A program made the translations under genes and the position numbers. Under the pieces are notes generated by a model, which was given only the letters and a program-made list of their open reading frames with translations, was not told where the DNA came from and made no database searches. From NCBI GenBank assembly GCA_964413015.1, contig CAYPQZ010000008.1, forward strand, positions 111,626 to 175,625: 64,000 nt of DNA. Reading direction: 5' to 3'. Below, piece after piece: positions 203 to 57,458 of this stretch (positions within the stretch are counted from its first letter, which is position 1; each line of letters starts with the position of its first letter). This DNA is from an uncultured Candidatus Saccharibacteria bacterium. Its GTDB lineage: Bacteria > Patescibacteriota > Minisyncoccia > Portnoybacterales > UBA2143.

Positions 203-402
203 TTTACTTGACAGAATTCTTTTAATTTGTAAGAATTAAACAAAAATGAATAAATTTTTATTCTCAGCTTTAATCGGTTTAGTTTACTTTACTGGCTTAG
301 AGCCCAGGCTTTTTTAAGTAATTAGCGTTAATCCATACTTAAAAAAGCTAACTCTCTGGTCAGTTTTTTATTAGGCCTTTAACAATTAATAAGGAGGAAA
401 AG

Positions 403-5051: not shown

Positions 5052-5257
5052 TTTTTACCTCCTGTATATAAAGTTGGAAAAGTACCGATTTTTGACTATC
5101 TAAAGTATAGCATATTTTTACCTTGTTGTAAAGGGTAACAAAAAATCAGCATTTCTGCTGTTCCTTAAACTTTTTGGTCGCCGAGTCCCGCACTAAAACA
5201 AGTTCAGTACGAGGCAAACTCCGCGAGGCGACCTCCAAATCGTTGACTTTTTCTCGG

Positions 5258-10589: not shown

Positions 10590-11263
10590 AATTCTTGAAG
10601 AATATTTTTTAATTCCTCTGGCAAATCCGATTTAAGCTCCATTATCTTACCATCAGGCGATTTAAATTTCAAGTAAGCGGCGTGGAGAAACTGCCTTTTT
10701 AAGCTATCCGGTTGCGGTTGCCTTTTAAATTTATATTGCTGGTCGCCGGCGATTGGATGGCCGATAGAAGCTAAATGGACTCTAATTTGATGAGTCCGGC
10801 CGGTTCTAATCTGAACTTCCAGCAGGGTATAGTCGGAAAATCTTTTTATAACCTTATATTCAGTCCAGGCCGGTTTAGCTTTTTCGTCTAACAAGACGCT
10901 TCTTTTTTTATAGTCTTTTTTAGAAAAGCTGATTGATTTGGTAATGGTTCCTTTTCCATCTTTCACTTGTCCGTGAACCAGAGCCAAGTATTTTTTTGTT
11001 ATTTTTCTTCCTTGAAACTGTTTTTTTAAATAATTGAAGGCGGAATTGTTTTTAGCTATAATCATTAAGCCGGAGGTATCTTTGTCTAAACGGTGGACAA
11101 TTCCCGGCCGCAAAGGGTCATCGCCGACATTTTTAATTTCCGGATAATAATCAAGCAGCCAATCAATCAAAGTATTTTTTTGACCTGCTTTAAGCGGATG
11201 AACCAATAAGCCAGCTGACTTATCAATAATCAGCTGGTCCTTGTCTTCAAAGATAATTTTCAT
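10586..11263 (-). CDS. RluA-family pseudouridine synthase
   Basis: HRLDKDTSGLMIIAKN catalytic motif. Start moved to MKIIFEDKD (ATG 11261-11263); the longer ORF-track N-terminus lies in a GC-rich, probably non-coding region. Confidence 0.7.
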   Translation of the reverse strand: MKIIFEDKDQLIIDKSAGLLVHPLKAGQKNTLIDWLLDYYPEIKNVGDDPLRPGIVHRLDKDTSGLMIIAKNNSAFNYLKKQFQGRKITKKYLALVHGQVKDGKGTITKSISFSKKDYKKRSVLLDEKAKPAWTEYKVIKRFSDYTLLEVQIRTGRTHQIRVHLASIGHPIAGDQQYKFKRQPQPDSLKRQFLHAAYLKFKSPDGKIMELKSDLPEELKNILQEL

Positions 11264-11524
11264 GTATATAGTTATTAATTTTAATGTACGGCGGCTCATC
11301 CGAAGTTTTTGGAGGCAAGTATTCTTGCTGACAAAAATTTTGGATAGCCGACTGTTGTGCGATGTGTCGCGTACCCGCGACCGAGCCAACAGACGGCGGA
11401 GCCGCCGCACATTGTACAAAAGGAAGTTACTGTGACATTTTGCGCAACATCAGGGTTATACAAGGGTGAGCGACCGCAAGGAGCGAAAGCGCAGCGTCCC
11501 CTTTAGCGTTGCCCGTAGTCCGCG
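11264..11524. ncRNA. candidate structured ncRNA (unclassified)
   Basis: About 260 bp with GC far above the local background, nested inverted repeats (GCCGACTGTTG...CAACAGACGGC; GTCGCGTACCCGCGAC; GGCGGAGCCGCC), and no credible ORF. Confidence 0.3.
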
Positions 11525-11875
11525 TTACTTTTTAGTCAAATTATTTTCAGGATTTTTATGATTATACTTCGCAAGAATTTCGGTCTTGACTAAATTGAAA
11601 GCTTCTTCAATATCCACACCAAGTTGATTGGCAAGACGACAAATTCCGAAAAACAAATCACCTACACCATCAACAAAAATTGCTTTATTTTCTTCCACAA
11701 ATTTTTTGCGTTCTTCTTCTGACTTATATCTCAAATGTTGAGACATTTCAATAAGTTCTTCATGTAAATGGTCAAACTTATCAACATTTGGAACATCTTT
11801 CCAATTATTTCGCTCAGCAAAAAATTTGAGCAATTTTTGAGCATCTTTTATTGTTGTGATTTGTTTTTCTTCCAT
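11525..11875 (-). CDS. MazG-like nucleotide pyrophosphohydrolase domain protein
   Basis: 116 aa with HEELIEMSQ...EEERKKFVEE...GDLFF helical EExxE-type motifs. Confidence 0.55.
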   Translation of the reverse strand: MEEKQITTIKDAQKLLKFFAERNNWKDVPNVDKFDHLHEELIEMSQHLRYKSEEERKKFVEENKAIFVDGVGDLFFGICRLANQLGVDIEEAFNLVKTEILAKYNHKNPENNLTKK

Positions 11876-12071
11876 ATGATTAAATAAAAATCCTGAACTT
11901 TATAAATTAATTGATTAAACGAACGGAGGGCAATGTCGTATAACTCGCTTTTATGCGAATTGAATAAGTAATATCAACATTTTATTGTATATTATACGAA
12001 CTTAATGTATGATTATAGCAAACTTACTAATAATCATTTACTAAATTTAGTTTAGCAACCTCCACAAAATT

Positions 12072-12884
12072 ATGCAAGAATATTTAGAGAAAGCAAAACA
12101 GGAATTAAGACTAAGAAATTACAGTTTTAAAACTATGAAAGCTTATCTGATTTGCTTGAGAGAGTATTTTAACTTTCAAAAAATAGATTTAGAGAGAATA
12201 GATGAAGAGAATATAAAAGAATTTTTACTGAATAAACAAAGTAAAAATTATTCTTCGCAAACAATTAATCTTTATCTAAGTGCAATAAAATTTTTCTACT
12301 ACAAAGTATTGAAAATTCCTCAGAAGATAAATTTAAAATTCGCCAAACGAAATAAAAAACTGCCGATTGTTCTATCAAGAGAAGAAATTAAAAACGTCAT
12401 TGACGTAATCAGAAATCCAAAACATAAATTAATAATCTCTTTGGCTTACGGCGCCGGATTAAGAATTAGCGAGGTCGTCAATTTAAAAGTAAAAGATATC
12501 AATTTAGAAGAATTAACTATTTATCTTAAAAACGCCAAAGGGAAAAAAGACAGAATTACTATTTTCCCAGAGAAAATCAAAAATAATCTTCAAAACTTAA
12601 TCGCTGATAAAAATTTAAACGACTATCTTTTTGAAAGTGAACGAGGCGGAAAATTAACTGAACGGACAACTCAAAAAGTTTTTAAAAACGCGCTCCGAGG
12701 AGCCGGTATTAAAAAAGACGCTACTTTTCATTCATTAAGACACAGCTTTGCGACGCATTTATTAGAGAATGGCGTTGATGTCAGATATGTGCAAGAACTT
12801 TTAGGTCATCAAAATATCAGAACAACCCAAATTTATACTCAAGTAACAAATCCAAAACTTAAAAATATTAAAAGCCCATTATGA
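12072..12884 (+). CDS. tyrosine site-specific recombinase (XerC/XerD/integrase family)
   Basis: C-terminal HSLRHSFATHLLENGVDVRYVQELLGHQNIRTTQIYTQV with the R..H.R..Y catalytic constellation. Lies about 200 bp from tRNA-Ala. Confidence 0.8.
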   Translation: MQEYLEKAKQELRLRNYSFKTMKAYLICLREYFNFQKIDLERIDEENIKEFLLNKQSKNYSSQTINLYLSAIKFFYYKVLKIPQKINLKFAKRNKKLPIVLSREEIKNVIDVIRNPKHKLIISLAYGAGLRISEVVNLKVKDINLEELTIYLKNAKGKKDRITIFPEKIKNNLQNLIADKNLNDYLFESERGGKLTERTTQKVFKNALRGAGIKKDATFHSLRHSFATHLLENGVDVRYVQELLGHQNIRTTQIYTQVTNPKLKNIKSPL

Positions 12885-13089
12885 TAAGTAAATTACAAGG
12901 TTACTTAGATGGTTTATAAAGACGGTACAAAAGATGTTGTAAAAAGTTTCAGCGAGCGGGTAAAAATTGGAGGGGTTCAAGGGGAGGAAAATTTTTGCCC
13001 GCGAGCCGTTAGCAAAATTGCAAAGAAATTTTGCGTCAATCAATCGGCGCCAGGATTTTGCTTAAAAGAGGTTCTGACATCGTTCAATA

Positions 13090-13166
13090 TGGTGGACCGT
13101 GGGAGATTCGAACTCCCGACCTCCGCATTGCAAATGCGGCGTTCTAGCCAACTGAACTAACGGCCC
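13090..13166 (-). tRNA. tRNA-Ala (TGC)
   Basis: Acceptor GGGCCGT with G3:U70, anticodon loop UU-TGC-AA, CCA encoded. Confidence 0.85.
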
Positions 13167-13276
13167 TTCATCTGATTAGGATACAATTTTCGCAGAGCGA
13201 AAATTTTTTGTTTCAACGGAGCTATTGACTATAGTATAACAGATTTTGACTTAAGAAGCAAGGAACGCTTGACAGG

Positions 13277-13293
13277 ATACCCCTCGGGGGTAT
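13277..13293 (+). promoter_or_regulatory. CsoR-type operator palindrome inside promoter
   Basis: ATACCCCTCGGGGGTAT, a perfect 8-1-8 palindrome, lies between TTGACA (13269-13274) and TATATT (-10). Confidence 0.6.
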
Positions 13294-13304
13294 ATATTAA
13301 AAAA

Positions 13305-13553
13305 ATGAAAAACAAAAAATTAATCAGACGCCTGAATATTGTTAAGGGCCAGATTGACGGACTGGCAAGAATTATGGAAAATGAAGAGGACTGCAGCAAG
13401 GTTTCAGAACAGTTTTACGCGATTAACAGCGCCTTAAAAAAAGTAATGGAGATATATTTTAAAGAGAATTTAACTTCTTGCTTAAGGTCGGTCAATTTAA
13501 AGAAGAAAAGAACAATTGACTTCTTGTTAAAAGAAATAATTAAAAATAAATAA
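13305..13553 (+). CDS. CsoR/RcnR-family (DUF156) metal/thiol-sensing transcriptional repressor
   Basis: LIRRLNIVKGQIDGLARIMENEEDCSKV...AINSALKKV is typical of the family. The sensing positions read x-C-L-C (His replaced by Leu). Confidence 0.7.
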   Translation: MKNKKLIRRLNIVKGQIDGLARIMENEEDCSKVSEQFYAINSALKKVMEIYFKENLTSCLRSVNLKKKRTIDFLLKEIIKNK

Positions 13554-13557
13554 ATCA

Positions 13558-14268
13558 ATGCTAGAATTAACCGATGAAAATTTTGAAGAAGCCATAAAAA
13601 AAGCGGACAAGCCGCTTTTAGTCGACTTTTGGGCTACCTGGTGCAGCCCTTGCCTGATTCTTTCACCGATTCTGGAGAAAATAGCCCAGGATTACAAATC
13701 AAAAATAGAAATAGCGAAAGTTAATGTTGATTCCGCCCCGACGGTCTCGCAGAAATTTGAAATACAGAATATCCCAACTGTGATTCTTTTTAACCAAACC
13801 GAACCGGTTGACGGTTTTGTCGGTGTCCGGCCGGAATCGCTGATTAAGGAATGGCTGGATAAAATTTTAGAAACGGTCGGTCAAGAGCAAGAACTAAAAA
13901 ACGGTGTGGAAACAGAGGAAAACAAAGAAGGAAGAAAGGAGGATCAGGTAAAATCCAAAAAGATGGAATCAAAAAAGGGAAAAAGCGAACCACAAGAAGA
14001 CGACGAGAGAAAAATCAGTCGGACAATCAAGTGGTATGAGGAATACGCTCAAAAGAATGGTTTAAAGCTGAATTCGGATGAGGAAATGGTCCGCGGCTTA
14101 ATTAAGGGGCTTTTAAAAAATGAAGACAAGCACGGAGCAAGATATTGCCCTTGCCGGAGAATTGCCGGAGACATTGAGGAAGACCGGCCCAAAATTTGTC
14201 CCTGTCAATGGCATCGGGAAGAAATTAAAAAAGATGGCCGCTGTTTTTGCGGACTTTTTGTAAAATGA
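13558..14268 (+). CDS. thioredoxin fused to a ferredoxin:thioredoxin-reductase catalytic-subunit-like domain
   Basis: N-terminal WCSPC thioredoxin, Lys/Glu-rich linker, C-terminal CPCRR...CPCQWHRE...GRCFCGLF (FTR beta CPC/CHC signature). Confidence 0.65.
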   Translation: MLELTDENFEEAIKKADKPLLVDFWATWCSPCLILSPILEKIAQDYKSKIEIAKVNVDSAPTVSQKFEIQNIPTVILFNQTEPVDGFVGVRPESLIKEWLDKILETVGQEQELKNGVETEENKEGRKEDQVKSKKMESKKGKSEPQEDDERKISRTIKWYEEYAQKNGLKLNSDEEMVRGLIKGLLKNEDKHGARYCPCRRIAGDIEEDRPKICPCQWHREEIKKDGRCFCGLFVK

Positions 14269-14774
14269 ATTTAATTTTTTCTTTTATCGTATCTTTAGTT
14301 TTTTATCTAGCATTGACTTTTGGCTCGGGGAGTATCTTATATTGGAGCAGAGAAGAGATTGTCTTAGGGGTCATTTTATCTGCTTTAACCGGAATAATAG
14401 CCCAGCGAATTTTTAAACCGCTCAAAATCGGGATAAGCCCGAAACTGTTAAATCCTTTAAGGTGGGTTTTATTTTTAGTATATCTGTTCGTCCCTTTCTT
14501 AATTAGCGTTGTCAAAGCCAATTTAGAAGTTGCTTACCGGATTATCACCAATCGAATAAAACCGGGCATTGTTAAAATATCGCCTGACCTGAAGACTGAT
14601 TTAGGTTTAACTTTGCTGGCTAATTCCATCACTCTGACGCCCGGGACATTGTCGGTCGATTTAGACCAAGAGAAAAATCTTTACGTTCATTGCCTCTGGG
14701 TTAAAGATAAAAAGCCCGGCGCCAAGCCATTGGCTTTTAAAGCCGCCAAGTGGATTAAAATAATCACTGAATAG
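14265..14774 (+). CDS. Mrp/Mnh antiporter subunit E-like (MbhA-like)
   Basis: ANSITLTPGTLSVD...LYVHCL MnhE signature. ATGA start/stop overlap with the upstream gene. Confidence 0.65.
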   Translation: MNLIFSFIVSLVFYLALTFGSGSILYWSREEIVLGVILSALTGIIAQRIFKPLKIGISPKLLNPLRWVLFLVYLFVPFLISVVKANLEVAYRIITNRIKPGIVKISPDLKTDLGLTLLANSITLTPGTLSVDLDQEKNLYVHCLWVKDKKPGAKPLAFKAAKWIKIITE

Positions 14775-14779
14775 TTTCA

Positions 14780-15019
14780 ATGTGGCAAATAATCGCTTTA
14801 ATCATTTCTGTTTTTATTATTATCGTCTTGATGAGAATTTCCCTAGTCAGGACGATTTTTGACAAATTGGTTATTCTAGACGTGGCTAACACTTTAGTTA
14901 TCACTTTACTGATAACGTTGGCAATTGCCTGGCAAGAGTTTTTTTTAATTGACGTGGCCATTGTTTACGCTTTTCTTTCTTTTGTAGGCTTAATCTATTT
15001 TGTTAAATACGTCCGATAA
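14780..15019 (+). CDS. Mrp subunit F-like small membrane protein
   Basis: 79 aa, 3 TM helices, follows the mrpE-like gene. Confidence 0.5.
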   Translation: MWQIIALIISVFIIIVLMRISLVRTIFDKLVILDVANTLVITLLITLAIAWQEFFLIDVAIVYAFLSFVGLIYFVKYVR

Positions 15020-15027
15020 AAACGCCT

Positions 15028-15354
15028 ATGTTTTTATTTTATTTCTTTATTGCCGTCAGTTTGATTTTTTTCGCCTTAAGTATTTTAGGCCTGTTCCGGC
15101 TACCCGATGTTTATACCAGATTGCATTGTTCCAGCTTGGCACTGACTTTTGGTTTTGTTTTTTTTGTTCTGTCTGTGGTGACTTATTTTTCAGCTGCGGT
15201 CGAAAGCAACTTTTCAGCGATTGTCCGCGTTTTTTTAGTCGCTTTAATTGTTCTGTTAGTCGGTCCGGTTTTATCGCACGCCATCGCCAAGGCCTCATAC
15301 GAAAGCGGAGCCAAGCCGCAAAAAGCGGAGAAAGGCAAATTTAACCAATTTTAA
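15028..15354 (+). CDS. Mrp subunit G-like
   Basis: RLPDVYTRLHCSS motif typical of MnhG. Confidence 0.6.
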   Translation: MFLFYFFIAVSLIFFALSILGLFRLPDVYTRLHCSSLALTFGFVFFVLSVVTYFSAAVESNFSAIVRVFLVALIVLLVGPVLSHAIAKASYESGAKPQKAEKGKFNQF

Positions 15355-15358
15355 TCAA

Positions 15359-15613
15359 ATGGTTTTCCCCTGGGAACAAATTATTCAGTTTTTAATTTTA
15401 AGCGCTATGGTTTTGTCGGCCTTTTTAGCGCTGAAAAGCAGAAATCTGTTCGCTTCAATCGCTTATTTGGCGGCGATGAGCTTAATGCTGGCCGCGGAAT
15501 TTTATTTACTGCGGGCGCCGGATGTGGCTATGGCCGAAGCGGCCGTAGGAGCGGGTTTGTCTTCGGCTATCTATCTGGCGGCTGTTTACCGCCTTAAACA
15601 GCTTAAAAAATAA
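15359..15613 (+). CDS. DUF4040/MbhD-like membrane subunit
   Basis: 84 aa hydrophobic; position and size as for MbhD. Confidence 0.4.
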   Translation: MVFPWEQIIQFLILSAMVLSAFLALKSRNLFASIAYLAAMSLMLAAEFYLLRAPDVAMAEAAVGAGLSSAIYLAAVYRLKQLKK

Positions 15614-15617
15614 TCTT

Positions 15618-15920
15618 ATGTTTGAGAAAAGCAGAAAATATAATTTTCAGAAAACCAAAATAACTGCTTTGGTGATTTTATTTATTTTTCTGCTCTTCAT
15701 TTTGTGGTCTCTTCATCCTTGCGGGCAGCCAAAAGCAACCAAGATGGATGACTATTTTCTCCGAAATGCTCAAGAGCAGACTGGCAGCAACAATGTTGTT
15801 ACCAGTATCATTTTTGATTATCGTGGACTAGATACTTTAGGCGAAGCGACTGTTTTATTCGCGGCTGCTATGGGAGTATTTTTTGTTTTTAATCCTAAGA
15901 AAAAATTGCCGTTAGATTGA
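15618..15920 (+). CDS. MnhB-related N-terminal domain protein (MbhE-like)
   Basis: VVTSIIFDYRGLDTLGE signature. Confidence 0.55.
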   Translation: MFEKSRKYNFQKTKITALVILFIFLLFILWSLHPCGQPKATKMDDYFLRNAQEQTGSNNVVTSIIFDYRGLDTLGEATVLFAAAMGVFFVFNPKKKLPLD

Positions 15921-15923
15921 ACT

Positions 15924-16364
15924 ATGACTAGAATAGTTAAAACAACCAGTTTAATAATTTTTGCTCCGATAGTTTTATTCGGCTTATATATTATTTCCCA
16001 TGGCCATTTGACTCCCGGTGGCGGATTCCAAGGAGGAGCGGTGGCGGCTTCAGCCATTGCGCTGGTCTGGGCGGTTTTTAGAAGCGAAACCAAATTCTCC
16101 GCCGGATTATTCTCGTTCTTGGAATCTTTAGGGTTGTTTCTCTTTATCTTGCTGGCTTTCGGCGGTCTGGCTAGGCAAACGTTTTTATCCAATTTTTTAG
16201 CCAATACGCCGGGCTTTTTCGGACAGACAATTAATTTCGGAGTTAATCCCGGCTTTTTAGCTAGTGGCGGAGTTATCCCTTTAATGAATCTGGCCATTGG
16301 CCTGGAGGTCTTTGCGGCCTTGTCGCTGGTGATTATATTAATAGCCGGGCAAAAACATGATTAG
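15924..16364 (+). CDS. MnhB-domain membrane subunit (MbhF-like)
   Basis: HGHLTPGGGFQGG signature. Confidence 0.6.
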   Translation: MTRIVKTTSLIIFAPIVLFGLYIISHGHLTPGGGFQGGAVAASAIALVWAVFRSETKFSAGLFSFLESLGLFLFILLAFGGLARQTFLSNFLANTPGFFGQTINFGVNPGFLASGGVIPLMNLAIGLEVFAALSLVIILIAGQKHD

Positions 16365-16665
16365 CTTTGTTTATCTATTCGCTTTCTTGCTCCTGGCGAT
16401 TGGAATTTCAGGAGCAGTTTTCAAGAAAAACCTGATTAAAGTGGCGATGTCCATTAATATTATTAGTAACGGAGTGAATTTATTTTTAATCAGTTTGGGG
16501 TATCGGACAGGAGGAGTGGCTCCAATTTTCACCAATGCGGTCGGTGTAGATATGGTCTTGCCGACTTCTCAAGCTTTGGTTCTAACTAGTATTGTCATTA
16601 ACCTGGCAGTAACCGCTTTTCTGGTTTCTTTGGCCGCTTTGCTTAGTCAGAAAAAGCATTCTTAA
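16357..16665 (+). CDS. MnhC/NuoK-like subunit
   Basis: 102 aa, 3 TM, NuoK-like. Confidence 0.6.
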   Translation: MISFVYLFAFLLLAIGISGAVFKKNLIKVAMSINIISNGVNLFLISLGYRTGGVAPIFTNAVGVDMVLPTSQALVLTSIVINLAVTAFLVSLAALLSQKKHS

Positions 16666-16668
16666 CTT

Positions 16669-18198
16669 ATGTCTCAAACCATCATTTTAACCATTGCTGT
16701 TTTCCTGTTGGGCGCTTTCCTTCTGCCAATTGCCGGCAAATTAGGCAGGAAAACTAAAGGGGGCTGGCTCGGCTTAATTTTAATTGCGGCTAATATTTTT
16801 GCTTTTTTCTTGTATTATGAGGTTTTAACAAAGGGGCCGATGGCTTACCGCGTGGGCGCCGAACTGCCTTTTTCGCCTTCTTCGTCGGGATTCCCTTTCA
16901 GGATTGTTTTAACCGGCGATGCTTTATCAGGTTTGTTGGCTTTTGTTTTTGTTTTAATATCTTCCTTGGCTTTGCTGTTTTCTTGGAAAAATTCAGAATT
17001 TCGGCCTAAGAGCCAAGAACATCAATATTCCTCTTCAACCGGTTTTTACGTCTGGGGGTTGTTGCTTGTCGCGGGCGCGCTTGGTTTTTTATTGGCCGGA
17101 GATTTTTTCACCTTATTTGTTTTTTATGAAATAAATTCTATCGCGGCAGCCGGCTTGATTTCCTTTTTTGGAAGGAGAAAAAATCTGAAATCAGCTTTTC
17201 ATTATTTGGCAGTTTTCTCCGTCGGTTCCTTATTTTTGCTTTTCGGAATTGGCCTTCTTTACAGCCAGTATGGTTTCTTGAATATGGCCGCGGTGGCCAA
17301 AAATCTTAATTTTTCCTTTTTGGACCAGATCGCTTTGGCTTTAATCATGGCCGCTTTGGCTTTAAAGGCAGGTTTTTTCCCCTTCTATTTTTGGAGACCC
17401 GGAACCTATCAATCTTCTCCTGCGCCGGCTCTGGTCTTGTTCATTGTTTCTTCGGCTTCAGCTGTTTACGCTCTCTTTAGAATTATTTTCAACGTTTTCG
17501 GTCCGAGTTTTAACCTGAGTTGGGTTTTAATCTTGTTTTCGGTTCTGTCAATTTTCGTCGGCGCTTTTCTGGCCTTGAAAGAAAACAATCTTAAAAGAGC
17601 CCTGGCTTATTTGGCTGTTTCAGAAGTGGGTTACATTTTTTTAGGAGTTTCTTCGGGATTGTCCAAGCCGGAAGCGGAATTCAGCCGTCAGGCGATTGAA
17701 GGAGGTCTATTCCATCTGGTCAACGACGTTTTAGATATGAGTTTGTTGTTTTTGCTGACCGGTCTTATTATTTATCTTGGTCGGAAAGAAAACGCTTTTG
17801 AGATACGCGGATTGGCTCGTCATCATCCCTGGCTGGCCGGAATTTTCCTTCTTGGCGTTCTGGCTGTGTCCGGTTTGCCGCCGTTAAATGGTTTCGCATC
17901 CAAGATGATGATTTATGAGTCAGTTTTTAAACTGAATCCCGCCTTGTCGGTTTTGGGTATTTTGGGCAGTATTCTGATTTTGGCGGTTTTGGTCAAAATC
18001 TTCGCTTCTGTCTTTCTTGGCTTTTCGCTAAATGCTTACCGAAAGACGCCTAAAACAGCCGCGGCGGTTATTCTGATTTTGGCGGTTAGCATGGTTTTAA
18101 TCGGGCTTTTCCCGAAAAAATTTATCGCTTCCTTTATTAACCCGGCCGCCGAATCCCTGATTTTGCCGTCGGTTTACGTAGGTAAAGTTATCAATTAA
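16669..18198 (+). CDS. MnhD/NuoN/NuoM-family antiporter-like subunit
   Basis: 509 aa, about 14 TM helices, proton-pumping-subunit family features. Confidence 0.7.
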   Translation: MSQTIILTIAVFLLGAFLLPIAGKLGRKTKGGWLGLILIAANIFAFFLYYEVLTKGPMAYRVGAELPFSPSSSGFPFRIVLTGDALSGLLAFVFVLISSLALLFSWKNSEFRPKSQEHQYSSSTGFYVWGLLLVAGALGFLLAGDFFTLFVFYEINSIAAAGLISFFGRRKNLKSAFHYLAVFSVGSLFLLFGIGLLYSQYGFLNMAAVAKNLNFSFLDQIALALIMAALALKAGFFPFYFWRPGTYQSSPAPALVLFIVSSASAVYALFRIIFNVFGPSFNLSWVLILFSVLSIFVGAFLALKENNLKRALAYLAVSEVGYIFLGVSSGLSKPEAEFSRQAIEGGLFHLVNDVLDMSLLFLLTGLIIYLGRKENAFEIRGLARHHPWLAGIFLLGVLAVSGLPPLNGFASKMMIYESVFKLNPALSVLGILGSILILAVLVKIFASVFLGFSLNAYRKTPKTAAAVILILAVSMVLIGLFPKKFIASFINPAAESLILPSVYVGKVIN

Positions 18199-18203
18199 AT
18201 CCT

Positions 18204-18506
18204 ATGGAATTAATTTGGCAGCCTAAAATTGCTTTGATTTCTTTTCTCCTAATATTTTCGGTCGTTTATCTTGTCTATTTGTTGGGCGAAAAAAAATATC
18301 AAAAAAAGACGTCCCAAACGACGACTTACTTTTCCGGCGGCCAGCCGCCAGAAAAAAACGAGCTGAAAAATTGCTATTGGGGATTTTTTGAAGATTTTAA
18401 AAAACTCTACAGATTTTTATTCCGGATTCAAAAAGAAAATGCCAATGACTATATTTTCATCTTTATTTTTGGCTTAGTCATATTCCTTCTAATTTTAAGT
18501 TTTTAG
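18204..18506 (+). CDS. hypothetical small membrane protein in the complex operon
   Basis: Two hydrophobic segments, no recognisable family; sits in the MbhI position. Confidence 0.35.
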   Translation: MELIWQPKIALISFLLIFSVVYLVYLLGEKKYQKKTSQTTTYFSGGQPPEKNELKNCYWGFFEDFKKLYRFLFRIQKENANDYIFIFIFGLVIFLLILSF

Positions 18507-18510
18507 AATT

Positions 18511-19494
18511 ATGACTGGATTAACCTTACAATTAACGATGATGGTGGTCTTAATTTTCGGTAGCGTCTTTTTAGGTCTGCTTTTGAAAGGGATTGACCGA
18601 ATTTTGTCGGCCCGAATGCAAAAAAGGGTCGGACCGCCTCTGCTTCAGCCATTTTATGATTTCAGAAAATTGATGGTTAAAGAAAGCATTGTGCCGAAAT
18701 ACGCCTCTAAGTGGATTTTCAGTTTGGCGCCTCTAGTTTCTTTAACGGTTTCTATTTTGATTTTGTTTTATCTTCCCATAGCCGGCGTTTCCGTTTTAAG
18801 CGGGGCCGGAGACCTGATTTTAATCATCTATCTCTTCATTTTCCCGGGTCTATGTTTGGCTTTGGGAGCTTTTGCTTCTAACTCGCCTTACGCCAATCTT
18901 GGCGGCCAGAGGTCAATTATTAATATGTTGGGGTACGAATTTCCTCTGGCTATTGTCTGTCTGGCCCCGGCTTGGATGCTTTACCAGAATGGTTTTTCAG
19001 CGCCTTTTTCTTTGACCGAAATTTACTCTGCTAATATCTGGAGCTTAGCCGGGCCGCTTGGAACAATCGGGCTTTTACTGGAGACGGTGGTTATCTTCAT
19101 TATCGTTTCTGCCGAAATTGCTAAAAGGCCTTTTGATCTTGGCGCGGCCGATTCAGAAATTGCCGGCGGTGTCTTATCAGAATATTCCGGCCGGAATTTA
19201 GCGATGTTTTATCTGGCTGAAGCGGTTAAAATAGTTGCAGTCGCCGCTTTATTCGTTTCTCTTTTCTTCCCATGGAGCGTTGTTGATTTATTCGGTTCAA
19301 ATCTACCTTTGCACGGTGCCGTTGCCTGGGCAGTTAACATCGGCTTCTATCTTCTGAAAATATTCCTGCTGGTTTTCATCGGTTTGACTTTAATCCGAAC
19401 CGCCGCTTCAAGGTTCAAAATTAGCCGTTTAACTAGAACATACTGGGGCTACATGGCTTTGTTGGCTGCTTTTGGATTTTTATTAATTTTATGA
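18511..19494 (+). CDS. NuoH/HycD/MbhM-like membrane subunit
   Basis: N-terminal R.GP...QP..D..KL..KE motif, 8 TM helices. Confidence 0.75.
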   Translation: MTGLTLQLTMMVVLIFGSVFLGLLLKGIDRILSARMQKRVGPPLLQPFYDFRKLMVKESIVPKYASKWIFSLAPLVSLTVSILILFYLPIAGVSVLSGAGDLILIIYLFIFPGLCLALGAFASNSPYANLGGQRSIINMLGYEFPLAIVCLAPAWMLYQNGFSAPFSLTEIYSANIWSLAGPLGTIGLLLETVVIFIIVSAEIAKRPFDLGAADSEIAGGVLSEYSGRNLAMFYLAEAVKIVAVAALFVSLFFPWSVVDLFGSNLPLHGAVAWAVNIGFYLLKIFLLVFIGLTLIRTAASRFKISRLTRTYWGYMALLAAFGFLLIL

Positions 19495-19922
19495 AGAATA
19501 GTCGAGAGAATAAAAAACTAAGAAAGATAACCCGCTCTATCTGGGTTTTTAACTGGTTTAATTCATGCGGTTTTATGGAAGTTTTGCCGATTGTGGGCAG
19601 TCGCTGGGATATGGAGCGGTTTGGCTTAATCCCGGTTGCTAGCCCGAGACAGGCCGATTGTTTGATTATTGCCGGCTATCAGACAATAAAATCAATCAAG
19701 AGGGCCAAAGTGATTTACGAACAAATGCCTGCTCCTAAACTGGTTATTGCCTTGGGTTCCTGTCCGGTGACTGGCGGAATGTATTGGGACTCCTATAATA
19801 CGATAAAGAAATTAGGGGATTATTTGCCGGTTGACTTATATATTCCCGGCTGTCCGCCGAGACCGGAGGCGATTTTTGACGGAATCTACAAATTAATTCA
19901 AAAAACGAAAGCAAAAAGATGA
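19491..19922 (+). CDS. NuoB/hydrogenase small-subunit-like (MbhJ-like), one cluster Cys missing
   Basis: GSCPVTGG and IPGCPPRP motifs present. The first motif reads SCGF where NuoB has CC, leaving only 3 of 4 Cys. Confidence 0.7.
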   Translation: MKNSRENKKLRKITRSIWVFNWFNSCGFMEVLPIVGSRWDMERFGLIPVASPRQADCLIIAGYQTIKSIKRAKVIYEQMPAPKLVIALGSCPVTGGMYWDSYNTIKKLGDYLPVDLYIPGCPPRPEAIFDGIYKLIQKTKAKR

Positions 19923-20404
19923 AAAATTTAATTTCTCAAATCCAGTCCAATTTTAAGGCCGACATTCTAAAAAAAGAAGAAAGGCAGTTTTGGCTGAAGA
20001 TTAGCCGAAGAGAATTGCCGGCGGTTTGTCTTTTCCTGAAAAAAAACGGATTTGATTTCTTTTCTTCTTTGTCAGCGGTGGACATGCCGGCAGAAAACAC
20101 CATAGAATTGATTTATCACCTTTGGAGCGAAAAAAGAAAAGCCGGTTTAAACCTCAAGACAAAAGTTGATAGAAAAAAACCGGTCATAAAATCAATTTCA
20201 GAAATTTATTTCCCGGCGCAAATCCAAGAAAGAGAAATTTGCGAACTCTTTGGCGTAGATTTTTTGAACAATCCGAACCTATCCGGTCTTTTCCTGGAAG
20301 ATTGGCCGGGACCGCCGCCTTTTTTAAAAGATTTTGACTGGCGGTCCTATGTTAGAGAAAAATTCTACGATCAGAAAAAACAAGATGAAAAAGGATATTT
20401 CTAA
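19919..20404 (+). CDS. NuoC/30-kDa-subunit-like (MbhK-like)
   Basis: LIYHLWSEKRKAGLNLK...ERE(I)CELFG conserved core. Confidence 0.65.
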   Translation: MKNLISQIQSNFKADILKKEERQFWLKISRRELPAVCLFLKKNGFDFFSSLSAVDMPAENTIELIYHLWSEKRKAGLNLKTKVDRKKPVIKSISEIYFPAQIQEREICELFGVDFLNNPNLSGLFLEDWPGPPPFLKDFDWRSYVREKFYDQKKQDEKGYF

Positions 20405-21494
20405 AGATTACCAAGAATTTTTATTCGGCCCTGCCCATCCCGGTTCGGGTAATTTTTCGATTAAGATAAAACTTGACGGCGAGAAAGTCGTCCAAGCCGA
20501 ATCAGATCCGGGATACCTGCATCGCGGTTTTGAGAAACTAATGGAATACCGGGACATTTGGCAGAACGCGGTCCTTTCAGATCGGATTTGCGTTTTTGAA
20601 CCACTGTCCTGGAATTTAATTTTCGCCGAAGCGGTGGAGAAACTTGCTGAAATTGAAGTTCCGGAAAGAGCGAAATATATCCGGGTCATTCTAACTGAAT
20701 TATCCCGGATTCAATCCCATCTAATCTGGTTTGGCTCATTTTCTCTGGCGGTCGGATTTGAAACCGGTTTTAAAATATATTTCGGCTACCGCGACTATAT
20801 CTTAGATATTTTTTCCGAGATTTGCGGCGGCCGGGTTTATCCGACTGGCTGTATCTGTCCCGGCGGAACAAGGCGGGACTTGCTTCAGGAAACCGAGAAA
20901 AAAATCCAGAGCGTCCTGGACAAAACGGAACAGGCAGTTGCTTATCTTGAAAAAGAAGACCCTGTTTTTCAGTCCAGAACCAAAGAGGTTGGAATCTTGA
21001 AAAAAGAAGATGCCATCAGATTAGGGGCAACCGGACAGGTTTTGAGGGCTTCAGGTGTTTCGTATGATGTGAGAAAAAGCAACCCTTACGAAGTATATCC
21101 GGCCGTAGATTTTGAAACGCCGATTTTAAAAGAAGGCGACGCTTATTCAAGATTTCGGTTAGGAGTTCTGGAGATAAAGGAGAGTCTGAAAATTATCAGG
21201 CAGCTGCTGGGAAAAATCCCACAAGGAAATTTTCTGAATGAAAAGATGAAAGTCAGCCAGTCGTTTATTCTGCCCAAGGGGGAAGTTTATTTAAGAACCG
21301 AGACCGCACGCGGAGAAGGGGGCATCTATCTTAAGGGCCAAGATAATGTTAATCCCGAACGGGTAAAAATTAAGAGTCCTTCTTTACCCCATTTAATTCC
21401 AATACTGGAATTCTTGCTAATTGGGGCGGAGGTAGCCGATATCCCGGTGATTTACTGGAGTTTAAACGGGTGTCCGGCCGATATGGACCGATAA
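20385..21494 (+). CDS. NuoD/[NiFe]-hydrogenase-large-subunit-like lacking NiFe-ligating cysteines (Ehr-like)
   Basis: FGPAHPGSG...DPGYLHRGFEKLMEY core. The N-terminal site reads DRICVFEP (CxxC lost) and the C-terminal site NGCPADMDR (only one Cys). Confidence 0.7.
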   Translation: MKKDISKDYQEFLFGPAHPGSGNFSIKIKLDGEKVVQAESDPGYLHRGFEKLMEYRDIWQNAVLSDRICVFEPLSWNLIFAEAVEKLAEIEVPERAKYIRVILTELSRIQSHLIWFGSFSLAVGFETGFKIYFGYRDYILDIFSEICGGRVYPTGCICPGGTRRDLLQETEKKIQSVLDKTEQAVAYLEKEDPVFQSRTKEVGILKKEDAIRLGATGQVLRASGVSYDVRKSNPYEVYPAVDFETPILKEGDAYSRFRLGVLEIKESLKIIRQLLGKIPQGNFLNEKMKVSQSFILPKGEVYLRTETARGEGGIYLKGQDNVNPERVKIKSPSLPHLIPILEFLLIGAEVADIPVIYWSLNGCPADMDR

Positions 21495-21498
21495 AAAT

Positions 21499-21879
21499 AT
21501 GAAGCTTAAAATTATCCCAAAATTAATTATTAACTTATTCAAAAGATTCTTAACCGTTAAATATCCGACAAAGTCGCTTTCGATTCCCGAGGGCTATCGT
21601 GGCATACCTAAGCTTCTCCGGCCGGAAAAATGCTTAGGTTGCGGCCGGTGCGCGAAAGCTTGTCCTAATAAAGCAATTGAAATGGTGGAGGTCAAACAAA
21701 AAGACGGCAGCATAAAAAAAGAACCCCGGATTGACCTTAACAAATGCTGTTTCTGCGGATTGTGCGAAGAAGCCTGCGCGTTTAAAGCGCTTTGCTTGAC
21801 CAAAGAGATCCCTTTAGCCGAAGAAAAAAAACCGGCCGATAATCTTTCAGCCGGTAAAGTTAAGTTGTCAGAGGATTAA
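21499..21879 (+). CDS. NuoI-like 2x[4Fe-4S] ferredoxin subunit
   Basis: CLGCGRCAKACP and CCFCGLCEEACA motifs. Confidence 0.75.
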   Translation: MKLKIIPKLIINLFKRFLTVKYPTKSLSIPEGYRGIPKLLRPEKCLGCGRCAKACPNKAIEMVEVKQKDGSIKKEPRIDLNKCCFCGLCEEACAFKALCLTKEIPLAEEKKPADNLSAGKVKLSED

Positions 21880-21910
21880 ATCTCTAATTCTCCCGCAATC
21901 AAGCGGGCCT

Positions 21911-21987
21911 TGGTGGGCAATGCAGGACTTGAACCTGCGACCTCCTGGATGTCGACCAGACGCTCTAACCAACTGAGCTAATTGCCC
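21911..21987 (-). tRNA. tRNA-Val (GAC), unusual C33
   Basis: Acceptor GGGCAAT, anticodon stem TCTGG/CCAGA, loop UC-GAC-AU, CCA encoded. Confidence 0.7.
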
Positions 21988-22086
21988 AAAATTATTCAAA
22001 ATCTTTAATTTTGTTTATAATTTTAGAGCCTGCCTTTGGCAGGCACTGATTTTTATATCCAAAACAAGTTTTGAACAAAAATCGTG

Positions 22087-22159
22087 TGGGCGTGCCAGGA
22101 TTCGAACCTGGGGCCTAGGCCTTATAAGGACCCCGCTCTAACCGCTGAGCTACACGCCC
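22087..22159 (-). tRNA. tRNA-Ile (TAT) (anticodon UAU, not CAT)
   Basis: Acceptor GGGCGTG/CACGCCC with A73, anticodon loop CU-TAT-AA, T-loop GGTTCGAATCC. Confidence 0.6.
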
Positions 22160-22273
22160 GCCTGTAACGCTTCGCGTAACGATGCAGGTGAACCCGCAAA
22201 GCTATACTGCTTATTGTCTGTATAAAAATATATTAACAAAAAACATTTGTCTAAGCAAGTCTTCTAAATAATT

Positions 22274-22300
22274 AAAAAAGGGGATATGCGCCATATCCCC
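22274..22300 (-). terminator. intrinsic terminator of ftsH
   Basis: GGGGATATGCGCCATATCCCC hairpin followed by a T-run on the minus strand. Confidence 0.7.
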
Positions 22301-22332
22301 ATGTCAATAAATTTATTTCTTTCTTACTTACA

Positions 22333-24156
22333 TTAGACCTTTTTTTTCATCAATCTTTCAAATTCTTTTCTCTCAACGGTTTCTTTTTTAATCAGCTGTT
22401 TGGCGATTAAATCCAGGCGCTTTCTTTTTTCAATTAATATTTTCTTGGCGGTTTTGTAAGCATTGTTGATCAATTTAGATATTTCTTTATCAATTTGGTT
22501 GGCAGTCTCTTCAGAATAATCCTTTTCAGCGGCGATTTCTCTGCCTAGAAAAATCATCTCTTCTTTGCCGCCAAAAGTTCTAGGCCCTAATTTTTCACTC
22601 ATCCCATATTTGGTTACTATCTGGCGGGATAATTCGGTCGCTTTCTGCAGGTCGTTGGAAGCTCCGGTGGTTAATTCTCCAAAAACTAATTTTTCGGCAA
22701 CGTGACCACCCAGAAGAATCGCCAACTCGTCTATGAATTCAGAGCGGCTATGCAAATGCCTGTCTTTTTCGGGGAACTTTATAGTATAGCCAGCTGCCGG
22801 TCCTCGGGCGATAATGGAAACCTTCTGGATTAGGTCAGCGTCAGGCATTGAGGCGGCTACCAAAGCGTGTCCAGCTTCGTGATAAGCGGTAATTTCTTTT
22901 TCTTTTTTGGATAAGATATGGCTTTTTCTTTCAGGCCCCAGCAGGACTTTCTCGATGCATTCGCGCAGTTCGTCTTGGCCGATTTTTTTCTTGTTTCTCC
23001 GGGCAGTTAGGATGGCTGCTTCATTGACTAGATTGGCCAAGTCGGCCCCAGAAAATCCGGGCGTCCTCTCAGCGATTTCTTTAAGATTAACATTCTCGTC
23101 CAAAGGCTTATTCAGTGCATGAATTTTAAGGACTCCTTTACGGTCCTCAATATCCGGTAGATTAAGAATAATTCGCCGGTCGAATCTGCCCGGTCTTAAT
23201 AGGGCTGGGTCAAGAACGTCCGGTCGGTTAGTGGCCGCCAGCAGGATTATTCCAGTATTTGGGTCAAAGCCGTCCATTTCAACCAGAATCTGGTTTAAGG
23301 TTTGTTCCCTTTCGTCATTGCCGCCGCCCAAGCCGGCTCCTCTTTGACGACCGATGGCATCCAGTTCATCTATGAAAATTAAACAGGGCGAGTGTTTTTT
23401 AGCTGTCTGGAATAAATCTCGAACCCGACTTGATCCAACTCCGACGAACATTTCAACAAATTCTGAACCGGAAACGCTGAAAAAAGGAACATTGGCTTCG
23501 GTGGCGATAGCCCGACCAAGTAAAGTTTTGCCGGTTCCCGGCGAACCGACTAACAAAACTCCTTTAGGGATTTTAGCTCCCAGGTCAACGAACTTTTTAG
23601 GATTTTTTAGAAAGTCAACTACTTCATGAAGCTCTTCCTTAGCTTCTTTGAGGCCGGCCACATCTTTAAAAGTCGCCCGGTCTTTTTTATCTTTAGGATT
23701 AATTAAACGGGCTCTTGAATGCCCAAAAGTCAAGGCCTGCATTTGGCCTCTTTTAGCTCCTCTGAACATAAACCAGAAGAAGAAGCCGATAATTAACAGA
23801 GGCAAGAGAAAGGGGAGGACAGTTCCGAGCCAAAAGGCGGCTTCGCTTTCTCCCTTTATTTCCAAATTGACAAGTTTAAGTTTTTCCGGGTCAACCCCAT
23901 AGTTTTTCAAAGATTCTGTTAATGAGGCCTCTTTTTCTTTGATGGCTATTTCTTGGTCTCCGCTTTTTAATTCAATCCCCAATTTCTCTCCTCTGATAGT
24001 AATGATTGAGACTTGCTCTTGATTTATCTGTTTAACTAACTGACTTAAAGAGATTTCTTGAGGTTTTTGTTCAGAGGCGCTGAATAAGGCAAAAAGTCCG
24101 GCAATCGTTAAGAAAGACAGGAAGACAATAAGTAGATTTTTTAGTAGAAATTTCAT
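22333..24156 (-). CDS. ftsH: ATP-dependent zinc metalloprotease FtsH
   Basis: AAA+ motifs GSPGTGKT and DEID, second region of homology, HEAGHA zinc site, N-terminal TM helices. Confidence 0.9.
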
Positions 24157-31014: not shown

Positions 31015-31164
31015 ATACTTAAATAAAAATTGCAGCTCGTCTTTGCCATTTAAGCTTTGGCAAGGTAGGCCCGCCTTCGTTCCGGCTTGCGTCTGAGCTT
31101 CGGCGGACGCTAATTTTTATAGTTAAATTGAAAATTTAGATAAAAATTGCGAAAGGGGGTGAAA

Positions 31165-52287: not shown

Positions 52288-52296
52288 AATTTTATT

Positions 52297-53455: not shown

Positions 53456-53457
53456 TT

Positions 53458-53790: not shown

Positions 53791-53795
53791 GTTCA

Positions 53796-55418: not shown

Positions 55419-55430
55419 TAATGAGTAAAA

Positions 55431-57449: not shown

Positions 57450-57458
57450 ATTTGACAT

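Follow-up and report, generated by a model that had tools for sequence, protein, structure and literature searches.

A 64,000-nucleotide stretch of contig CAYPQZ010000008.1 (assembly GCA_964413015.1), which belongs to an uncultured Candidatus Saccharibacteria bacterium within the candidate phyla radiation (CPR) and is called the window here, carries 14 co-directional, intact open reading frames (ORFs) at 14265-21879 that encode the subunits of a membrane-bound redox complex, and every junction between them is either a gap of at most 9 nt or an overlap. A sequence-only reading of this DNA had proposed MrpE/F/G-, MnhB-, MnhC- and MnhD-related subunits, a small membrane protein and then NuoH, NuoB, NuoC, NuoD and NuoI homologues, and both the 14-gene set and this order were confirmed by the ORF layout and by Pfam and NCBIfam assignments (Table 1). 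The operon itself comprises 16 genes (13305-21879) and begins upstream of 14265, since a CstR-type repressor gene and a gene fusing thioredoxin (Trx) to the catalytic domain of ferredoxin:thioredoxin reductase (FTRc) precede gene A. The stop codon of Trx-FTRc overlaps the ATG of subunit A, and with this translational coupling the earlier impression that no other redox genes lie near the complex falls away. The second half of the operon runs H-I-M-J-K-L-N, with M ahead of J-K-L-N, and M is encoded before J in mbx/mbs operons as well. Pfam assignments revealed no NAD(P)-, flavin- or molybdopterin-binding subunit among the operon genes, and no NuoEFG-type input module.

Table 1. Promoter and genes of the 16-gene operon, in window coordinates
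Feature	Position	Strand	Assignment or detail
Promoter with embedded operator	13269-13298	+	-35 TTGACA 13269-13274; palindrome ATACCCC-TCG-GGGGTAT 13277-13293; -10 TATATT 13293-13298
CstR-like (CsoR-family, x-C-x-C) repressor, 82 aa	13305-13553	+	Pfam Trns_repr_metal 1.4e-17
Thioredoxin (WCSPC) + FTR catalytic domain fusion	13558-14268	+	Pfam Thioredoxin 7e-30, FeThRed_B 9e-24
Subunit A (MrpE/MbhA-like)	14265-14774	+	Pfam MNHE 4e-33
Subunit B (MrpF/MbhB-like)	14780-15019	+	Pfam MrpF_PhaF
Subunit C (MrpG/MbhC-like)	15028-15354	+	Pfam PhaG_MnhG_YufB
Subunit D (MbhD-like)	15359-15613	+	Pfam MbhD 3.7e-18
Subunit E (MbhE-like), separate gene as in MBH	15618-15920	+	Pfam MbhE 2.2e-12
Subunit F (MnhB/MbhF-like)	15924-16364	+	Pfam MnhB 3.7e-23
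Subunit G (MrpC/NuoK-like)	16357-16665	+	Pfam Oxidored_q2
Subunit H, sole antiporter-like (MrpD/NuoN) subunit, 509 aa	16669-18198	+	Pfam Proton_antipo_M 6e-43
Subunit I (MbhI-like), 100 aa, two predicted transmembrane segments	18204-18506	+	NCBIfam MbhI NF053600, E 2.9e-16; no Pfam match
Subunit M (NuoH-like membrane anchor), precedes J	18511-19494	+	Pfam NADHdh 5e-62
Subunit J (NuoB/MbsJ-like), cluster Cys C26/C91/C121 only	19491-19922	+	Pfam Oxidored_q6; MbsJ 3.2e-44
Subunit K (NuoC-like)	19919-20404	+	Pfam Complex1_30kDa 6e-27
Subunit L (NuoD/MbsL-like), C69/E72/C363/D366 + C158	20385-21494	+	Pfam Complex1_49kDa; MbsL 1.3e-82
Subunit N (NuoI-like), two CxxCxxCxxxC motifs	21499-21879	+	Pfam Fer4/Fer4_7

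The motifs first noticed in the catalytic subunits, namely DRICVFEP (containing C69) and NGCPADMDR (containing C363) in the large subunit L and SCGF in the small subunit J, are all present as quoted. L was aligned explicitly with Escherichia coli HycE and NuoCD and with MbsL of MBS, the membrane-bound sulfane sulfur reductase from Pyrococcus furiosus. In this alignment C69/E72/C363/D366 of L occupy the NiFe-site columns that hold C241/C244/C531/C534 in HycE, C85/E88/C385/D388 in MbsL and E/G/V/D in NuoCD. HycE served as the hydrogenase reference together with MBH-type (membrane-bound hydrogenase) J and L proteins from the metagenomic tandem loci described below and the published numbering of P. 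furiosus MbhL, whose NiFe ligands are C68/C71/C374/C377 (PMC11228991); for MbsL and MbsJ, the parts aligned in the output of the PDB search were used. No intact CxxC pair was found at either NiFe site, as the sequence-only reading had anticipated, RICVFE and NGCPAD standing in place of RxCGxC and DPCxxC. Its statement that the catalytic ligands have been lost is true in part: L retains two of the four Cys, and the other two have been replaced by the invariant acidic residues E72 and D366. Among solved structures, MbsL (6U8Y) was the best match of L, at 281 bits, followed by Thermus thermophilus Nqo4 (1.8e-64, 222 bits) and, at lower scores, by MbhL (6e-47, 164 bits) and HycE (9e-34, 120 bits). 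Identity of L is 40% with P. furiosus MbsL, 34% with NuoCD and 29% with HycE.

Searching 5.8 billion proteins with L gave more than 5,500 homologues (E<=1e-20), and in the top 120 the identity to L is 59-100%. In the conservation set of 122 sequences, consisting of these 120, the window protein and one more member of the cluster, E72, C363 and D366 are invariant and C69 is present in 121. A third Cys, C158 (window 20856-20858), lies in the motif [YF][IL]CPGG[VL]RRD and is likewise found in 121 of the 122 sequences, at a position occupied by Ile173 in P. furiosus MbsL, by Leu in HycE and by Arg in NuoCD. C158 is six residues past the position of Nqo4 His169, a residue that presumably contacts cluster N2. 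Two additional Cys of the window protein, C147 and C156, occur in just 3 of the 122 sequences. The Cys patterns of L and J are strictly kept across homologues and are, as judged from the alignments, a selected state and not the product of erosion. Pseudogene decay of the Cys sites was ruled out by their near-invariance in the 122 sequences, by the presence of all 14 genes in intact form in at least six diverged genomes, and by the occurrence of an MBS-type head beside a true hydrogenase head in one operon.

The small subunit J was previously thought to have lost its Fe-S ligands; three of the four cluster positions are kept, and they are exactly those that ligate the cluster of MBS. J matched MbsJ at 154 bits and MbhJ at 119 bits (1.6e-33). 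Its alignment with MbsJ is ungapped and places C26/C91/C121 at C28/C93/C123, with F23 at the position of MbsJ C25; identity is 52% with MbsJ and 50% with NdhK. The J proteins of six related loci all contain W[VI]FNWFNSCGF.E and three Cys only. The four-Cys proximal cluster pattern (CxxC...C...C), seen as SCNGCDIE in the MBH-type J of tandem locus L085, is absent from window J, as is the tandem CC of complex I NuoB, since J has SCGF. The segment bounded by a conserved Trp and a conserved Glu is 12 residues long in both window J and MbsJ, compared with 15 in the MBH-type J of metagenomic tandem loci, and the J loop of MBS is known to be shorter than that of MBH by three residues (PMC7684303). 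In MBS, the proximal [4Fe-4S] cluster is ligated by three MbsJ Cys alone, and its unligated Fe is the polysulfide-cleaving site (PMC7684303). C25 of MbsJ is too distant to be a ligand and the C25A mutant is active, as is the MbsL C85A/C385A variant, C85 and C385 being dispensable for the reduction of dimethyl trisulfide (PMC7684303).

The remaining head subunits point in the same direction. The best MBH/MBS match of K is MbsK (56 bits), MbhK not being recovered at E<=1e-8, and N matched NuoI (61 bits), HycF (55.5 bits) and MbsN (50.4 bits), with MbhN not recovered at the same threshold. N has Cys at 45, 48, 51, 55, 83/84, 86, 89 and 93 and is the presumed entry point for ferredoxin, in agreement with the original description of an Mrp-type, probably ion-translocating complex fed through a NuoI-like ferredoxin subunit.

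That the complex is a working [NiFe] hydrogenase of group 4, or a relative of complex I that reduces quinone, might be suspected from a marginal N-terminal match of L to Pfam NiFeSe_Hases (30.5 bits), from a match to NCBIfam NuoD NF004739 just above the cut-off (363.6 vs 360), and from the names that homologues carry in the JGI and NCBI databases, which include 'nickel-dependent hydrogenase large subunit' and 'NADH-quinone oxidoreductase subunit D'. We regard this as extremely improbable, given that two of the four NiFe Cys have become Glu and Asp, that no hyp/hycI maturation genes occur in the 64-kb window or in the 10-kb flanks of CPR relatives, that the quinone ligands of complex I are not kept (in the PDB-search alignment a deletion leaves nothing opposite Nqo4 H38, and V70 takes the place of Y87), and that a NuoEFG-type module is missing from an operon with one antiporter-like subunit. 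The 64-kb window also contains no hydrogenase, cytochrome, quinone-related or 2-oxoacid:ferredoxin oxidoreductase (POR) genes, and hydrogenase genes are likewise missing from the CPR flanks. That the complex is not a hydrogenase, as first proposed, is therefore upheld.

The membrane arm gave a different result from the head. In the PDB search, A scored 108 bits with MbhA and 68 with MbsA, B 42.5 and 36.2, C 56.8 and 40.6, and D 61.4 and 54.5 with the corresponding MBH and MBS subunits, whereas for G the two were about equal (63.9 and 61.0 bits). M matched MbhM (1.3e-52, 182 bits) better than MbsM (2.5e-33, 119 bits), and H matched MbhH at 4.8e-72 (247 bits), as against 4.9e-38 (135 bits) for MbsH and 1.5e-23 (87 bits) for MbsH'. 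E and F matched MbhE (46.7 bits) and MbhF (70.6 bits), the MBS equivalents of which form one chain (6u8y_E). Subunit I gave a weak full-length match to 6cfw_I (E 0.084, 16.6 bits), has no separate MBS counterpart and matched NF053600 below the equivalog cut-off; it is 61-67% identical in CPR relatives and, by analogy, is expected to supply loop 1 as MbhI does. Because A-D, H and M score higher against MBH (6CFW), with G about equal, and J, K, L and N against MBS (6U8Y), the complex is, by these sequence comparisons, a chimera in which an MBS-like J-K-L-N head sits on an MBH-like arm (A-I and M). The Mbh/Mbx layout originally assigned to it has to be amended in this sense, as it is no plain Mbx. 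MBH has lost the MrpA homologue, while MBS kept all Mrp homologues and changed its head (PMC7684303). The combination of a reduced arm with a changed head is found in neither solved structure (6CFW, 6U8Y).

The distribution of this architecture was examined in related loci, which are given L numbers where they need to be told apart. A scan of genome contigs with the single L protein yielded one useful relative, L001, and the one close genome match was a metagenome-assembled genome (MAG) labelled Candidatus Saccharibacteria; L002 and L003 (30% identity) were set aside as ordinary Nuo-like complexes. A metagenome scan with the clade alignment added 80 further loci, which were annotated along with the earlier ones by tblastn with our own queries (E<=1e-6, at least 50% coverage), a procedure that misses divergent partners. 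Relatives with L at 69-77% identity have the same 14 genes in the same order. Neighbourhoods were scored in non-redundant loci whose flanks cover 8 kb or more upstream and 3 kb or more downstream (n=25), kinship among them inflating the counts. Six of these have the membrane architecture A..I-M-J-K-L-N, and five of the six (including L042 and L081) have a Trx system in the flank, the window and L001/L010 coming on top of these; five have tandem heads, none with a thiol or sulfur partner; and 14 encode J-K-L-N only, with such a partner (HdrA/B/C-like, DsrE/TusA, Trx or Trx reductase (TrxR)-like) in 11.

The tandem loci, seven in all, combine one Mrp-type arm (A-I) with an MBS-type J-K-L-N-M and then a second I-J-L-M-N. 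In the four in which the second head was read, its L has R[VI]CGIC and a C-terminal extension and its J has SCNGCDIE, that is, a genuine MBH-type hydrogenase head. Such loci may encode two-headed or alternative-head complexes within one gene cluster, and the coexistence of two head types in one cluster implies that they are distinct functional modules. The closest non-CPR relatives (~60% identity) have J-K-L-N only, with no membrane genes nearby, and one CPR relative (L008/L009) is also J-K-L-N-only. In the non-CPR members the module adjoins HdrA(MvhD-fused)/HdrC/HdrB-like genes, related to heterodisulfide reductase (Hdr), or DsrE-TusA, which suggests that this catalytic module also exists in a soluble form and works together with enzymes of disulfide or sulfur-relay type.

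A Trx system lies directly upstream in every scorable relative with L at 69-77% identity: the Trx-FTRc fusion in L004/L005, a CstR-like gene followed by the fusion in L011, Trx with a 312-aa TrxR-like flavoprotein and a 50-aa ferredoxin in L006/L021, and a CstR-like gene with Trx, a TrxR-like flavoprotein and a small ferredoxin in L001/L010. At about 60% identity of L, locus L042 has Trx and FTRc, and L081 has Trx and a TrxR-like flavoprotein. The FTRc domain of the window contains six Cys arranged as CPC-x14-CPC-x12-CFC. The fusion has at least 480 homologues, and in the top 120 both domains are always present and the three CxC motifs have the same spacing in 119; in 62 of the 120, as in the window, the His of the CHC motif is Phe, so that the six Cys are present and the catalytic His is replaced. 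In the TrxR-like flavoproteins (L006 2488-3426, L010 2315-3253, L008 1194-2129) the HRRxxxR motif for the NADPH 2'-phosphate is degenerate (YHRDKLR or YHGNKLR), and on this ground those beside the complex may be ferredoxin-dependent flavin thioredoxin reductases; a small ferredoxin gene follows the flavoprotein gene in L006 and L010. The retention of Trx while two non-homologous forms of its reductase are exchanged argues for a functional or regulatory link with the complex. The idea that Trx-FTRc is an obligate partner was dropped, as the fusion occurs elsewhere without the complex, and we regard it instead as a recurrently recruited neighbour.

The recurrence of Trx raises the possibility that the electron acceptor is a protein thiol, and that the complex is an energy-converting ferredoxin:thioredoxin (disulfide or protein-persulfide) reductase in which C69, C158 and C363 of L would form a thiol relay to Trx, TusA or DsrE-type partners. 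Such an activity would be in keeping with the persistence of the Trx system beside M-J-K-L-N in two unrelated reductase forms, with the HdrABC, DsrE/TusA or Trx genes flanking the J-K-L-N-only relatives, with the coupled translation of Trx-FTRc and gene A, and with three conserved Cys of L for which there is no explained role, C158 being specific to the clade. It is nevertheless doubtful, since each Trx already has its own reductase in the operon (FTRc or the TrxR-like flavoprotein), the fusion is found without the complex elsewhere, the equivalent Cys of MbsL are dispensable for a model substrate (PMC7684303), and the catalytic chamber of MBS and MBH is buried and hydrophobic, and hard for a protein substrate to reach (PMC7684303).

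The first gene of the operon bears on the signal to which it responds. The best solved match of its product is the persulfide sensor CstR of Streptococcus pneumoniae (SpCstR, 7MQ1; PMC8643695). The true start is ATG 13305 and not TTG 13269, because the latter belongs to the -35 box and the resulting 82 aa agree with the orthologues. Numbered from this ATG, C30, N55 and C59 of the repressor recur in SpCstR under identical numbers; the repressor lacks the Cu-ligand His and has the x-C-x-C motif of candidate persulfide (RSSH) sensors. The 82-aa orthologues in L010 and L011 keep both Cys and have N or D at position Y.

The TTGACA-18 nt-TATATT sequence upstream of this gene is the strongest promoter-like site in 12800-22400 (11 of 12 positions), and its spacer encloses a perfect palindrome that occurs once in the window, where 0.12 occurrences are expected. 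We take this type of palindrome to be typical of CsoR-family operators. The core TACCC-N5-GGGTA was found in only 4 of 97 loci (L001, L010, L011 and L070). In the first three the arrangement is that of the window, TTGACA-nnA-TACCCC-N5-GGGGTA-TATAyT upstream of a CstR-like gene. L070, which is non-CPR and J-K-L-N-only, has two TACCCT-N3-AGGGTA-TAAT sites (377-391 and 5156-5170), one beside a divergent x-C-x-C CsoR-family gene (40-336, minus strand) and the other about 35 nt upstream of the start codon of J. This CsoR-family gene is divergent from a gene for a 976-aa molybdopterin oxidoreductase-like protein. The repressor probably binds the palindrome inside the promoter and, on the strength of the Cys motif and the operator, would be released by reactive sulfur species, thereby switching the operon on.

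In having NuoD and NuoB homologues without NiFe ligands and Mrp-type membrane subunits, and in not being complex I, the complex answers to the description of an energy-converting hydrogenase-related (Ehr) complex. This label, already given in the sequence-only reading, is appropriate: CPR homologues have been so called in Jaffe 2020 (PMC7304191), where their large subunit was judged one that 'likely cannot interact with H2', and the name is an umbrella term that also covers Mbx (PMC6349859). Ehr membership says nothing on the substrate. One could therefore argue for an ion-translocating module with a non-sulfur redox partner, for example a ferredoxin:NAD(P)+ oxidoreductase or one using a soluble acceptor, the Trx and CstR-like genes being incidental. 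The CPR large subunits fall in an Ehr subclade that Jaffe 2020 leaves without an assigned substrate (PMC7304191), Mbx was once proposed to be a ferredoxin:NADP+ oxidoreductase (PMC6349859), L is just 40% identical to MbsL, and 5 of the 25 scorable loci, all of the tandem-head type, show no thiol partner. We find this explanation unlikely, because the operon encodes no NAD(P)-, flavin- or molybdopterin-binding subunit, because the ligand signature of J and L is exactly that of MBS, the one non-hydrogenase member solved biochemically, and because regulator, operator and thiol-enzyme neighbours recur across lineages.

Considering this evidence, we propose, with a probability of roughly 60%, that the complex is an S-S (sulfane sulfur) reductase driven by ferredoxin, that its reaction is coupled to the pumping of ions, and that it is probably induced by reactive sulfur. 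An MBS-like function is indicated by the far better match of L and J to MBS than to MBH or formate hydrogenlyase and by the equal ligand positions, and a sulfur substrate is favoured by the MBS ligand signature, the CstR-type repressor with its operator and the thiol-enzyme neighbours. The original verdict that the substrate is unknown thus seems too pessimistic. In Thermotoga maritima, mbxA is induced 4.4-fold by S0 (PMC9431562). That the complex works like MBS is better supported than that it is an MBS, as the head behaves as an MBS head in these comparisons and the arm does not.

For the substrate, the direction of operation, the ion coupling and the inducer, the following scheme draws on gene context and homology. 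Ferredoxin reduced in the fermentative oxidation of 2-oxoacids would dock on N and, by homology, donate electrons to its two [4Fe-4S] clusters, from which they would reach the proximal [4Fe-4S] cluster of J, predicted from the ungapped MbsJ alignment to be held by three Cys with one Fe free. As MBS biochemistry suggests, the open Fe may bind an S-S bond and cleave it reductively, the substrate being either polysulfide or a per- or polysulfide in organic or protein-bound form. Loops of L, M and I could then couple the redox step conformationally to H+ pumping and Na+/H+ exchange in the arm, as in the MBH and MBS structures, and the single-pump arm would export H+ and/or Na+. The CstR-type repressor would free the promoter when reactive sulfur species appear, and Trx-FTRc, drawing on the same ferredoxin pool, would keep thiols reduced and may turn persulfides and short polysulfides into H2S. 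The net effect would be a ferredoxin sink that builds an ion gradient in a fermentative CPR bacterium without a hydrogenase at the locus. The free energy available per 2e- is 41 kJ/mol for MBS and 12 for MBH (PMC7684303); with one pump, a smaller share of it would be used, and this could suit lower substrate activities at moderate temperature. MBS itself releases no H2S, and short polysulfides decay abiotically in the hot cytoplasm (PMC7684303), a step that the co-expressed Trx system could take over in a mesophile while also protecting thiols.

The complex might also run in reverse, with an ion gradient made at the expense of ATP driving electrons from sulfide or thiols to ferredoxin for FTR and other enzymes. 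Ech and Rnf, which are related complexes, are generally known to be reversible, and the operon pairs the complex with a ferredoxin consumer, Trx-FTRc. We think this very unlikely. The 2-oxoacid:ferredoxin oxidoreductase genes (POR alpha/gamma, beta, delta) found a few genes downstream of the complex in L004 suggest a fermentative supply of ferredoxin, the CstR type of the regulator points to oxidised sulfur species as inducers, and these are acceptors rather than donors, and there is no evidence of reversal for MBS. In L004, Fe-S assembly-type genes (Fer4/Nitro_FeMo-Co, CbiA/ParA ATPase, FeS_assembly_P) lie between L and N at 11135-13220, ahead of POR.

Several points weigh against the proposal of a sulfane sulfur reductase. 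The family is a separate clade (L 40% identical to MbsL; J 52% to MbsJ and 50% to NdhK), which makes the transfer of a substrate by homology uncertain. The arm and M, which form part of the substrate chamber, are MBH-like, and the opening of the MBH chamber is described as narrower than that of MBS (PMC7684303). C158 has no counterpart in MbsL, and C/E/C/D is conserved although dispensable for the reduction of dimethyl trisulfide in MBS, which suggests chemistry outside the MBS model. Regulators of the CstR-like x-C-x-C type can respond to other thiol oxidants. Finally, Trx-FTRc occurs without a nearby complex, among genes for uracil-DNA glycosylase (UDG) and Fe-S assembly, in a Nealsonbacteria genome and a Humimicrobiaceae MAG, and its presence in the operon may reflect shared regulation and not a shared pathway.

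In a bolder version, which we put forward tentatively and do not expect to hold, the operon would represent a minimal sulfur respiration of CPR bacteria and a new class of energy-converting ferredoxin:S-S oxidoreductase, with an MBS-type three-Cys cluster and an MBH-type arm with one pump. Its substrate would be a protein persulfide or disulfide delivered by Trx (by TusA/DsrE or Hdr in the soluble J-K-L-N relatives) by way of C69/C158/C363 of L, so that thiol and persulfide turnover would be coupled directly to ion pumping.

The remainder of the window contains housekeeping genes typical of CPR (IF-2, RbfA, Mur ligase, L19, FtsH, S1, GyrA, LeuRS, TsaD, RecG) and 18 tRNA genes. Its GyrA shares 84% identity with a protein listed under 'Parcubacteria group bacterium' and 74% with one listed under 'Candidatus Portnoybacteria'. 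A type IV pilus cluster at 51214-60486 (PilM, PilO-like, PilB- and PilT-type ATPases, PilC, prepilin peptidase) and genes resembling type IV secretion system (T4SS) pilins at 31147-31524 are together typical of CPR episymbionts. Directly upstream of the operon are a tyrosine recombinase (Phage_integrase, 12072-12884, plus strand) and tRNA-Ala (13090-13166, minus strand), and directly downstream are tRNA-Val (21911-21987, minus) and tRNA-Ile (22086-22159, minus). In the syntenic locus L010 the operon occupies the same chromosomal position without the integrase, and in L006 it lies on the other side of L19 and a pseudouridine synthase, so the cassette seems to have moved locally. The anticodon of tRNA-Ile is UAU (tat), an uncommon bacterial way to read AUA. 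Close GyrA homologues of 1230-1350 aa in several related CPR genomes carry intein/LAGLIDADG domains (PF14890, PF14528); the window GyrA (26338-28800, 820 aa) has no intein. Some listed ORFs are almost certainly no genes: 12909-13160 (plus) runs antisense across tRNA-Ala, and 15000-15344 (plus) and 15818-16297 (minus) overlap the genes of subunits C-F in another frame or on the other strand.

CPR bacteria, or Patescibacteria, are usually described as lacking respiratory chains, and the operon provides a concrete, testable candidate for energy conservation in them, with ferredoxin from fermentation, S-S reduction at a bare Fe and an ion pump. It would also carry the catalytic principle of MBS beyond hyperthermophilic archaea and Thermotoga into a large and widespread family, the more than 5,500 homologues of L at E<=1e-20 bearing names from Patescibacteria, Atribacterota, Thermoplasmata, Thermococci and Synergistetes MAGs. 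As a module, the MBS-type head seems to be portable: it is placed on an MBH-type arm, set in tandem with a hydrogenase head, or encoded as J-K-L-N alone near HdrABC or DsrE/TusA. The names that annotation pipelines give to these proteins are 'NADH-quinone oxidoreductase subunit B/C/D/H/I' or 'nickel-dependent hydrogenase', and metabolic reconstructions from MAGs may consequently infer complex I or H2 metabolism wrongly and overlook a function in the sulfur cycle.

A report of 'Ehr' genes in CPR bacteria dates from 2020, so the bare finding of the complex is not new. The large subunits in question (PMC7304191) very probably belong to the same clade as L, being described there as CPR-specific, monophyletic, related to group 4 and missing the metal-binding Cys; the text consulted does not mention MBS, a three-Cys cluster, the type of arm, a regulator or thioredoxin. 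In the literature searched we found no report of the MBS catalytic signature in CPR Ehr proteins, of an MBH-arm/MBS-head chimera, of a CstR-type regulator with a conserved operator for such a complex, of recurrent thioredoxin, Hdr or DsrE/TusA neighbourhoods, of MBS-type and hydrogenase heads in tandem, or of the family-specific third Cys. The same searches gave nothing relevant on MBS or Mbx in CPR, Patescibacteria or Saccharibacteria and, for NuoBCDI with heterodisulfide reductase, only unrelated complex I papers.

Among known systems, the closest is MBS of P. furiosus (formerly Mbx, 6U8Y), which among solved structures matches L, J and K best and has the same C/E/C/D and three-Cys patterns, the shortened J loop, M before J-K-L-N, an N subunit with two [4Fe-4S] clusters and the same missing quinone ligands. 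MBS differs in having H plus H', no separate I and 13 subunits, whereas the window has one H, separate E and F and 14 genes, with the MbhI-like subunit standing in place of transmembrane helices 15-16 of MbsH'. Further differences from MBS are that A-D, H and M of the window are closer to MBH, that J lacks the non-ligand Cys (F23) and L has the extra C158, and that the host is a mesophilic-looking CPR bacterium with a CstR-like repressor and not SurR. MBH of P. furiosus (6CFW) shares with the window the number of 14 subunits, the single MrpD-like pump and MbhI, and is the best match for the arm (A-D, H, I, M; G about equal). It is set apart from the window by its head, as L of the window has no CxxC pair, J has three Cys and M precedes J instead of following L; no maturation genes occur in the window or the CPR flanks. 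The MBX of Thermotoga maritima, compared by description only, is a 13-subunit MBS homologue and a bacterial ferredoxin-linked candidate sulfur reductase.

The accompanying genes likewise resemble known systems in part. The three CxC motifs of the fusion are those of known FTRc, from which it differs in being joined to Trx, in lacking the variable subunit and in having Phe for His. With the CstR repressors of Staphylococcus aureus, Enterococcus faecalis and S. pneumoniae, the window repressor shares the CsoR fold, the x-C-x-C motif, Asn where the Cu-ligand His would stand and, as predicted from sequence, a GC-rich palindromic operator overlapping the promoter. The known CstR repressors control sulfide oxidation and detoxification (the cst operon, sqr, persulfide dioxygenase, rhodanese), whereas the predicted regulon of the CstR-like repressor in the window comprises a reductive energy-converting complex and a thioredoxin system.

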